Of a DNA stretch of 64,000 nucleotides, positions 22,542 through 23,454 are shown piece after piece (position 1 is the first letter of the stretch; every line of letters begins with the position of its first letter). The translations under genes and the position numbers were made by a program. Source of the DNA: Escherichia coli (lineage in GTDB: Bacteria > Pseudomonadota > Gammaproteobacteria > Enterobacterales > Enterobacteriaceae); NCBI RefSeq assembly GCF_041886205.1, contig NZ_CP169029.1, one strand, 5' to 3'. The notes beneath the pieces are model-generated. The model made no database searches. It saw only the letters and a program-made list of their open reading frames with translations, and was not told where the DNA came from.

Positions 22542-22599
22542 CCGTATACAGACTTGTTTCAACTGACCGGGAGGATTAAAAACTGTCCACTTATTTGCC

Positions 22600-23364
22600 A
22601 TGGAAAGGTTCCCTCACATGCATTATGCCGTTGTTGTCATGCTTGAACTGCTGTGCTGTATTCACGCTTATCGCTCCGGACAAGAGCGATACTGGATTTT
22701 TATCATCTTCTGTTTTCCAGTGATTGGCTGCGTGGCGTATTTCGTCATGGTGATGCTGCCTGAAACGGGCGCTGACCGTCACGGGCGCACCTTTCTGATG
22801 CGCCTGCAGGACAAAATCAACCCGGAACGCCACCTGCGTAAATTAACCGAAGAGCTGGCGATTGCCGAGACCAATCAAAACCATTATGCGTTAGCTAACG
22901 AACTGGCGCGCCTTGGGCGTTATCACGAAGCCGTTCCCCATTATCAGCAGGCGTTAAGCGGAATTTTCGCCCATGAAGCGGCAATGATGTTAAGTCTGGC
23001 GCAGGCGCAGTTTGCTATTCAGGAGTTTGCCGCCTGTCAGCAGACGCTGGAAGATGTGATGCGTTATAACCCTGATTTTCAGTCGGCAGACGGGCATTTG
23101 TTATTTGCCAGAGCGTTAGCCGCACAAGAAAAATACGCTGATGCGGAAAGCGAGTTTGAAGTATTGATTTCTTATTACCCCGGCCCGCAGGCGCGTATTT
23201 ACTATGCTGAAATGCTGGCAAAAATTAATCGACTGCGTGAAGCCAACGAGCAATATGTTGTCGTGGTTGATACGGCTAAACGTTCAAGGCCACATTATAG
23301 AAAACACCACCGGGAATGGATTAAGACCGCCAATGAACGGCTGAAGCAGAGTATTGTTCAGTAA
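22600..23364 (+). CDS. Membrane-anchored protein with PLDc_N-like N-terminal transmembrane domain and TPR-like helical repeats; not a K-12 annotated gene as far as I recall
   Basis: 254 aa ORF; N-terminus (YWIFIIFCFPVIGCVAYFVM) resembles the PLD/cardiolipin-synthase N-terminal TM motif, followed by helical repeats. Sits in the livF-ugpB intergenic region. Start could be M1 (22600) or M7 (22618). Confidence 0.65.
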   Translation: MERFPHMHYAVVVMLELLCCIHAYRSGQERYWIFIIFCFPVIGCVAYFVMVMLPETGADRHGRTFLMRLQDKINPERHLRKLTEELAIAETNQNHYALANELARLGRYHEAVPHYQQALSGIFAHEAAMMLSLAQAQFAIQEFAACQQTLEDVMRYNPDFQSADGHLLFARALAAQEKYADAESEFEVLISYYPGPQARIYYAEMLAKINRLREANEQYVVVVDTAKRSRPHYRKHHREWIKTANERLKQSIVQ

Positions 23365-23454
23365 GTGCTGCGCCAGATAATCTCTGGCGCGTTAATTTTC
23401 CCCAACGTAGCATTATCCGTGCCCCATCTCCCATTTTCCCTCACCCGTACCGTC

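Follow-up and report, generated by a model that had tools for sequence, protein, structure and literature searches.

Here we describe an open reading frame (ORF) located between livF and ugpB in a 64,000-nucleotide stretch of Escherichia coli DNA (contig NZ_CP169029.1), hereafter called the window. Taken jointly with the whole of the explanation developed below, we consider it likely that this ORF is a real protein-coding accessory gene that is self-contained and is a regulatory part of neither liv nor ugp. The livF stop codon is at 22499 and the ugpB start codon is at 23597, leaving a 1097-bp spacer that has a single long ORF of 254 codons on the plus strand (22600 to 23364). An initial annotation of this DNA had reported an extra 254-aa ORF between liv and ugp, within 22542 to 23454. 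We confirmed that ORF, but the real product is most likely 248 aa in length. The upstream ATG at 22600 is ACG in the O157:H7 strain EDL933, all homologues are approximately 245 to 250 aa long and start with MH or MP at the position of the second ATG, and the NCBI annotation pipeline (PGAP) places the start of the coding sequence at 22618. Hence, the true start is most likely the ATG at 22618, 18 nt inside the longest ORF, and the coding sequence of a membrane-anchored tetratricopeptide repeat (TPR) protein extends from 22618 to 23364 on the plus strand. An Rfam scan of positions 22400 to 23700 found no RNA family. The same region is 100% identical to that of E. coli wlxctx60 (NZ_AP045833.1), from bear faeces.

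The gene is not new. It is already annotated in hundreds of public genomes and has had an O157:H7 locus tag for many years. The RefSeq entry for the window allele is WP_000558833.1, "tetratricopeptide repeat protein"; the identical protein is also in UniProt and is present on 520 contigs. In O157:H7 Sakai the gene is ECs_4300 (NP_312327.1), labeled "hypothetical protein," and the EDL933 protein is WP_000558842.1. ECs_4300/WP_000558842.1 shares with the window gene the livF-ugpB locus, a length of 248 aa, and 93.7% nucleotide identity. The tail that follows the stop codon is 48 nt in the window allele and is unrelated to the tail of ~175 nt in EDL933. We found no paper mentioning the gene in the literature searched.

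Two lines of evidence indicate that the ORF encodes a functional protein. First, the ratio of nonsynonymous to synonymous divergence (dN/dS) between the window and EDL933 alleles is 0.066, and among five Escherichia alleles it is 0.07 to 0.23, with synonymous divergence of 0.10 to 0.37. Since dN/dS is low over substantial synonymous divergence, we conclude that the gene is under purifying selection. Second, an exhaustive profile search identified at least 711 clusters (50% identity) at an E value of ≤1e-30. Nearly all of the best 150 clusters are 240 to 260 aa in length and match from end to end. Together with the confident structure model described below, these results show that the gene is not a chance ORF. 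Named members come from Budviciaceae, the Pseudomonas mendocina/alcaligenes group, Xanthomonas, Stenotrophomonas, Luteimonas, Lysobacter, and alphaproteobacterial metagenome-assembled genomes (MAGs), and they are labeled only "tetratricopeptide repeat protein" or "hypothetical."

We compared the spacer with that of K-12. In MG1655, livF (b3454) and ugpB (b3453) are separated by 398 bp with no annotated feature inside, so the initial annotation was correct that the two genes are neighbors in K-12 with nothing between them; K-12 has no annotated ORF identical to that of the window. The two sequences are homologous up to a point just past the livF stop codon and again from window position 23413 (TATCCGTGCCCCATC...). 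Alignments with K-12 and EDL933, all-versus-all blastn of spacers, and genome counts together define a strain-variable segment of 913 bp in the window (22500 to 23412, not assigned to a strand). In place of this segment, K-12 has an unrelated 214-bp sequence with a different post-livF hairpin of its own and an inverted pair of repeats of the repetitive extragenic palindromic (REP) type (CTTATCAGGCCTAC / GTAGGCCTGATAAG). This stretch, which contains REP/BIME (bacterial interspersed mosaic element) sequence, is found in ~10 copies per genome. A sensitive blastn search (word size, 7) found no gene remnant in the K-12 spacer and matched only the shared 184-bp promoter block. Hence, K-12 lacks the gene outright, with neither a decayed nor an overlooked copy. 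The gene had been proposed to be either strain variable or unannotated or decayed in K-12; the former holds, and we reject the latter.

The distribution of spacer types was counted in 5426 complete E. coli genomes, 5425 of which have conserved livF and ugpB flanks. The TPR gene occupies the spacer in 659 genomes (12%), always as a single chromosomal copy. A K-12-type REP spacer is present in 4630 genomes, K-12 included (85%), and a phd-doc toxin-antitoxin pair (Phd/YefM antitoxin and Fic/Doc toxin) is present in 107 (2%). About 30 genomes fall outside all three states. Carriers of the TPR gene include EDL933 and Sakai; most carriers are ~94% identical to the window allele, which is itself rare (at least 99% identity in 5 genomes). 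All 40 E. coli copies that we sampled are annotated as an intact coding sequence. Variable presence between conserved flanks is the pattern of an accessory gene.

The product is predicted to be a 248-aa inner-membrane protein in which a two-helix hairpin precedes a domain of four TPRs. An AlphaFold2 model built from a 15-sequence alignment had a mean pLDDT (predicted local distance difference test) score of 87.2. The membrane hairpin comprises codons 2 to 50 (helices 2 to 20 and 25 to 50; window positions 22621 to 22767, plus strand), as supported by the model, a PLDc_N match, hhalign, and conservation. Both N-terminal helices are hydrophobic and are predicted to be joined by a short basic loop, RSGQERY; the family mean is 2.1 K/R residues in this loop. 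A helical hairpin at residues 54 to 82, modeled with lower confidence, lies ahead of the TPRs. The TPR domain comprises codons 86 to 247 (22873 to 23358, plus strand), with four helix pairs (86 to 112, 121 to 150, 157 to 186, and 191 to 221) and basic C-terminal capping helices. In the model, these antiparallel helix pairs stack as a superhelix, as is characteristic of the TPR clan. Scores for three Pfam TPR families exceed their cutoffs (TPR_19, 39.2 bits against 25; TPR_16, 33.1 against 32.7; TPR_2, 29.4 against 27), and TPR_19 is matched by 15 of 15 aligned homologues.

The hairpin resembles the N-terminal domain of cardiolipin synthase A (ClsA). The Pfam family for that domain, PLDc_N (PF13396), matches with a borderline score of 22.9 bits against a cutoff of 23.3 (E value, 8e-5; profile positions 22 to 39 of 42), and it is matched at an E value of ≤0.01 by 7 of 15 homologues. 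Using hhalign, residues 22 to 47 align with residues 36 to 61 of E. coli ClsA at a probability of 70% and an E value of 4e-5. In both proteins there are two hydrophobic helices, the second of which has the pattern W-x7-P-x2-G-x3-Y. Together with the Pfam TPR scores and the AlphaFold2 model, these matches confirm the earlier description of a cardiolipin-synthase-like N-terminal transmembrane motif fused to TPR repeats. Among 139 representatives of the family, whose median identity to the query is 31%, conservation is highest in the hairpin (H16, 97%; W26, 99%; P34, 91%; G37, 99%; Y41, 99%; P48, 95%), and the conserved positions of the TPR domain are mainly structural Ala, Leu, and Gly. This pattern suggests that the hairpin has a function of its own as a module, beyond anchoring the protein. 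The ClsA N-terminal motif has been reviewed as conserved, with a function that is not known (PMC9385802), and we found no experimental ClsA topology in the literature searched.

The protein is not a cardiolipin synthase and does not belong to any of the characterized TPR families that we compared. It differs from ClsA in lacking the phospholipase D (PLD/HKD) catalytic domain; the hairpin is followed by a TPR domain instead of an enzyme. The cardiolipin synthase model TIGR04265 scored 12.7 bits against 290 and covered residues 28 to 85 only, a Pfam scan found no PLDc domain, and the protein is only 248 aa long. LapB/YciM, which has a single transmembrane helix, nine TPRs, and a rubredoxin-like zinc domain, differs from the window protein, which has two transmembrane helices, four TPRs, and no C-terminal Cys cluster; the corresponding model (NF008756) scored 12.8 bits against 474. 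Scores were also far below cutoff for CpoB/YbgF (TIGR02795; 30.8 bits against 90.1) and for the HemY type (TIGR00540; 19.2 against 142). In contrast to YfgM, LapB/YciM, CpoB/YbgF, and NlpI, the window protein lies outside these families, is accessory rather than core, and is anchored by a two-helix ClsA-like hairpin, not by a single helix or lipid. A sequence search of solved structures yielded generic TPR proteins only. The magnetosome TPR scaffold MamA is alike in its generic TPR superhelix, with 18% identity, but it has no membrane hairpin and belongs to unrelated biology.

We examined the locus in relatives of E. coli. The arrangement livF-gene-ugpB is shared by Escherichia sp. E1V33 (a cryptic clade), E. 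whittamii, E. albertii, Citrobacter sp. NCU1, Pseudocitrobacter, and C. freundii. In Escherichia sp. MOD1-EC7003, from a second cryptic clade, livF and the gene are retained and other ORFs are next instead of ugpB. Nucleotide identity to the window gene is 93 to 95% within E. coli and the cryptic clades, 90.5% in E. albertii, and ~72% in Citrobacter. Searches of proteins and genomes found no homologue in Salmonella, Klebsiella, or Enterobacter. The copy in the E. albertii type strain NBRC 107761 is frameshifted into pieces of 202 and 50 aa, indicating that loss is ongoing. In E. albertii and E. whittamii (locus L016), livF and the gene are also separated by an additional ORF of 96 to 111 aa that has no Pfam match. 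In the type strain, these features lie at 6001 to 6746 and 5551 to 5886 of locus L017.

The spacer of C. freundii (locus L004, 4873 to 7581) contains the TPR gene, two orphan ORFs of 93 and 135 aa with no Pfam match, and phd-doc, which is ~1 kb downstream of the TPR gene with the two small ORFs between them. The portion with the TPR gene has ~71% identity to its E. coli counterpart. The portion with phd-doc likewise has ~71% identity to that pair in E. coli FY10 and continues without a break into the ugpB promoter. The simplest reading is that the ancestral spacer was composite and that E. coli lineages retained the gene, the toxin-antitoxin pair, or neither. The FY10 phd-doc spacer corresponds to positions 1652 to 2542 of locus L092. 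Separately, the EDL933 tail (locus L003, 3264 to 3440, ~175 nt) includes a 44-nt stretch that is 82% identical to a portion of FY10 phd (E value of 3e-7 in a tiny database) and that is perhaps what is left of an ancestral phd-doc pair.

From these comparisons we favor the interpretation that the Escherichia/Citrobacter lineage has long had the gene at this locus and that most E. coli strains, including K-12, have lost it, with replacement of the whole spacer by a REP-containing sequence. The main alternative is that some E. coli strains, for instance those of the O157:H7 lineage, acquired the gene recently by horizontal transfer and that the ancestral spacer was of the K-12 type. A recent gain would fit the small fraction of carriers, the low G+C content of the gene (0.49 overall and 0.52 at third codon positions [GC3], both below those of the flanking genes), the presence of alternative cargo, phd-doc, in the same spacer, and the synonymous divergence from EDL933, which is 0.275 for the gene and 0.12 to 0.14 for livG, livF, and ugpB, i.e., twice that of the flanks. 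Nonetheless, we regard a recent gain as improbable, because E. albertii, E. whittamii, two cryptic Escherichia clades, Citrobacter, and Pseudocitrobacter all have the gene at this position, and because its identity falls with species distance. Moreover, we found no mobility genes, integrase, insertion sequence element, or direct repeats flanking the gene, and no family in PADLOC-DB 2.0 or PHROGs v4 matched the TPR protein at an E value of ≤0.01. Plasmid hits were only distant ones, to chromids of Ralstonia and Methylobacterium and to a 373-kb Comamonas plasmid.

Outside this lineage, the gene is found in other surroundings. We scanned genome contigs for relatives, using a 10-sequence alignment, and clustered the neighbors of ~80 related loci. 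The neighbors differ from clade to clade. Escherichia and Citrobacter have livF and ugpB, Budviciaceae have an ABC-F ATPase gene and putA, the Pseudomonas mendocina group has pnuC-nadR-like genes and an FAD monooxygenase gene, and Xanthomonadales have dnaE-accA. In Xanthomonas, Luteimonas, and Stenotrophomonas (loci L064, L073, L076, and L081), the homologue is directly 3′ of accA, ~56 nt away and in the same orientation, and in the two Xanthomonas loci (L064 and L073) dnaE is ahead of accA on the same strand. Cotranscription of the Xanthomonadales homologue with this fatty acid synthesis gene is possible and is the only hint of a link to lipids besides the ClsA-like motif. The Enterobacteriaceae MAG Hs463_bin3 has tandem paralogues of 256 and 247 aa in the interval between the ABC-F ATPase gene and putA (locus L010, 2105 to 2875 and 3035 to 3778, on a contig shared with L019).

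The initial annotation had suggested that transcription of the gene, or its terminator, could influence ugp regulation. We found no support for such an effect. A terminator-like hairpin with a 13-bp stem followed by AUUUGU is located after livF (22506 to 22538, plus strand; −20.9 kcal/mol; z score of −6.3 relative to shuffled sequences); it was missed by a consensus scan because its T run is short. A second terminator-like hairpin, identified by the consensus scan and by fold energy, begins 5 nt past the stop codon of the gene and has a 9-bp stem with 6 G-C pairs followed by TTAATTTTCC (23369 to 23401, plus strand; −15.4 kcal/mol and a z score of −4.2 for 23369 to 23391). Because such hairpins lie on both sides, the gene would be monocistronic.

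Downstream of the variable segment, all of the spacer alleles that we compared share a conserved ugpB promoter block (23413 to 23596, plus strand). By alignment and blastn, this block is 97 to 99% identical among the window, EDL933, K-12, and FY10. It contains Pho-box half-sites in 11-bp phase from 23450, the first of which is 37 nt downstream of the end of the variable segment at 23412, and a sigma-70-like promoter, TTGTCA-17-TATCTT, at 23461 to 23489. The supplement to PMC10469882 gives two transcription start sites (TSSs) for ugpB in K-12, −53 and −101, and reports −101 for EDL933, which has the gene; positions −101 and −53 correspond to window positions 23496 and 23544, within the conserved block. 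According to PMC4415409, which cites Kasahara 1991, ugp has an upstream promoter that depends on cyclic AMP (cAMP)-CRP and a downstream promoter with Pho boxes; both fall inside the block.

A cis-regulatory role, in which the gene, its transcript, or its terminator modulates Pho- or CRP-dependent ugp expression or the 3′ end of the liv operon, might be suspected because the gene and ugpB share a strand and the stop codon of the gene precedes the first Pho half-site by 86 nt. The tail of the terminator is also only moderately T rich, and some read-through is conceivable. Still, we consider such a role very unlikely, since hairpins flank the gene and since the promoter block, with the Pho half-sites and both TSSs, is conserved in carrier, K-12-type, and phd-doc-type genomes alike. 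The −101 TSS is also the same in EDL933 and K-12 according to the published supplement. Furthermore, the unrelated contexts of the gene outside Escherichia and Citrobacter mean that its conserved function cannot be control of ugp.

Several observations weigh against our interpretation of an old, functional gene encoding a membrane-tethered TPR protein. The gene is dispensable, being missing from 88% of E. coli genomes and frameshifted in the E. albertii type strain. We detected no sigma-70-like promoter between 22540 and 22617, within 77 nt upstream of the start codon, and the GC3 of 0.52 compares with 0.64 to 0.74 in the flanking genes; for these two reasons, expression is probably low or conditional. 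No entry for the gene was found in the available portions of the supplementary tables of EDL933 transcriptome, translatome, and TSS papers. The preference for loss over gain is based on synteny in outgroups rather than on a phylogenetic reconstruction. The PLDc_N score is just under the Pfam cutoff, and the match covers only the second helix. Structure searches yield generic TPR folds only. The TPR domain may face the cytoplasm or the periplasm: in 92 homologues, the 20 residues after helix 2 contain an average of 4.05 K/R residues, versus 2.09 in the loop between the helices, which is not decisive but tips the balance slightly toward a cytoplasmic (N-in/C-in) TPR domain. Finally, none of the neighbors in the ~80 loci is conserved across genera, and therefore no partner can be named.

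Some of these points, namely, the absence of the gene from most genomes, the frameshift in E. albertii, the lack of a recognizable promoter, and the low GC3, would be expected of a decaying relic, an ORF that is still open in E. coli yet nonfunctional and heading to loss. We think that there is very little chance of this, given that the dN/dS values described above indicate sustained purifying selection and that all of the sampled E. coli copies are annotated as intact.

The likeliest role for the protein would be that of a membrane-tethered TPR adaptor, in which the conserved hairpin would interact with lipid or with the helix of a partner, and a protein partner would be brought in by the TPR platform. 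A more specific version, which we regard as improbable, makes the hairpin the functional core, which would sense or bind ClsA or an anionic phospholipid (cardiolipin or phosphatidylglycerol), with recruitment of a partner by the TPRs tuning membrane-lipid homeostasis. It draws on hints only: the strict conservation in the hairpin, the accA neighbor in Xanthomonadales, and the adjacent operon for uptake of glycerophosphodiesters and glycerol-3-phosphate in Escherichia. The idea that the gene belongs to a defense or addiction module, as a TPR membrane protein in an anti-phage or toxin-antitoxin hot spot linked to phd-doc, could be entertained because 107 E. coli genomes have phd-doc in this spacer and because, in C. 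freundii, the pair lies ~1 kb 3′ of the gene, but it is scarcely credible given that the TPR protein has no PADLOC match, that the TPR copies examined (window, EDL933, and Sakai) are without phd-doc and the phd-doc example FY10 is without the TPR gene, and that in ~70 loci of other genera the gene is solitary, its surroundings being housekeeping genes such as dnaE-accA and putA or an ABC-F ATPase gene.

The wider region also differs between the window strain and Sakai. A block of ~22 kb (16853 to 38762; liv-ugp-ggt-gnt) is 96.5 to 96.7% identical to Sakai, and its flanks (2299 to 16657 and 38734 to 41882) are 98.5 to 98.9% identical, which suggests that the block is an imported or anciently diverged haplotype in the window strain. 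Two segments of Sakai are missing from the window. The first (window junction 16658 to 16852; locus L093, 26985 to 27927) carries ECs_4307/ECs_4308, an acetyltransferase and an antitoxin component, located between panM and the livJ-like gene. The second (window junction 30842 to 30896; locus L093, 11016 to 12865) is the ECs_4291 region near ggt.

The significance of these findings is modest. A view centered on K-12 hides conserved accessory genes such as ECs_4300. As judged from the sequence, nothing in the current description of ugp or Pho regulation would need revision on account of the gene. In E. coli, the livF-ugpB spacer is a three-state polymorphism (TPR gene, phd-doc, or REP element), for which differential loss from a composite ancestral spacer is the simplest account by way of the Citrobacter comparison, and it makes a neat case for work on pangenomes and recombination. 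The protein represents a large, uniform, uncharacterized proteobacterial family that shares a membrane motif with ClsA. Because of this shared motif, a phenotype for the family could inform on the motif in cardiolipin synthase A, and if the hairpin is indeed the functional core, the family would offer a route to the role of the ClsA N-terminal motif.

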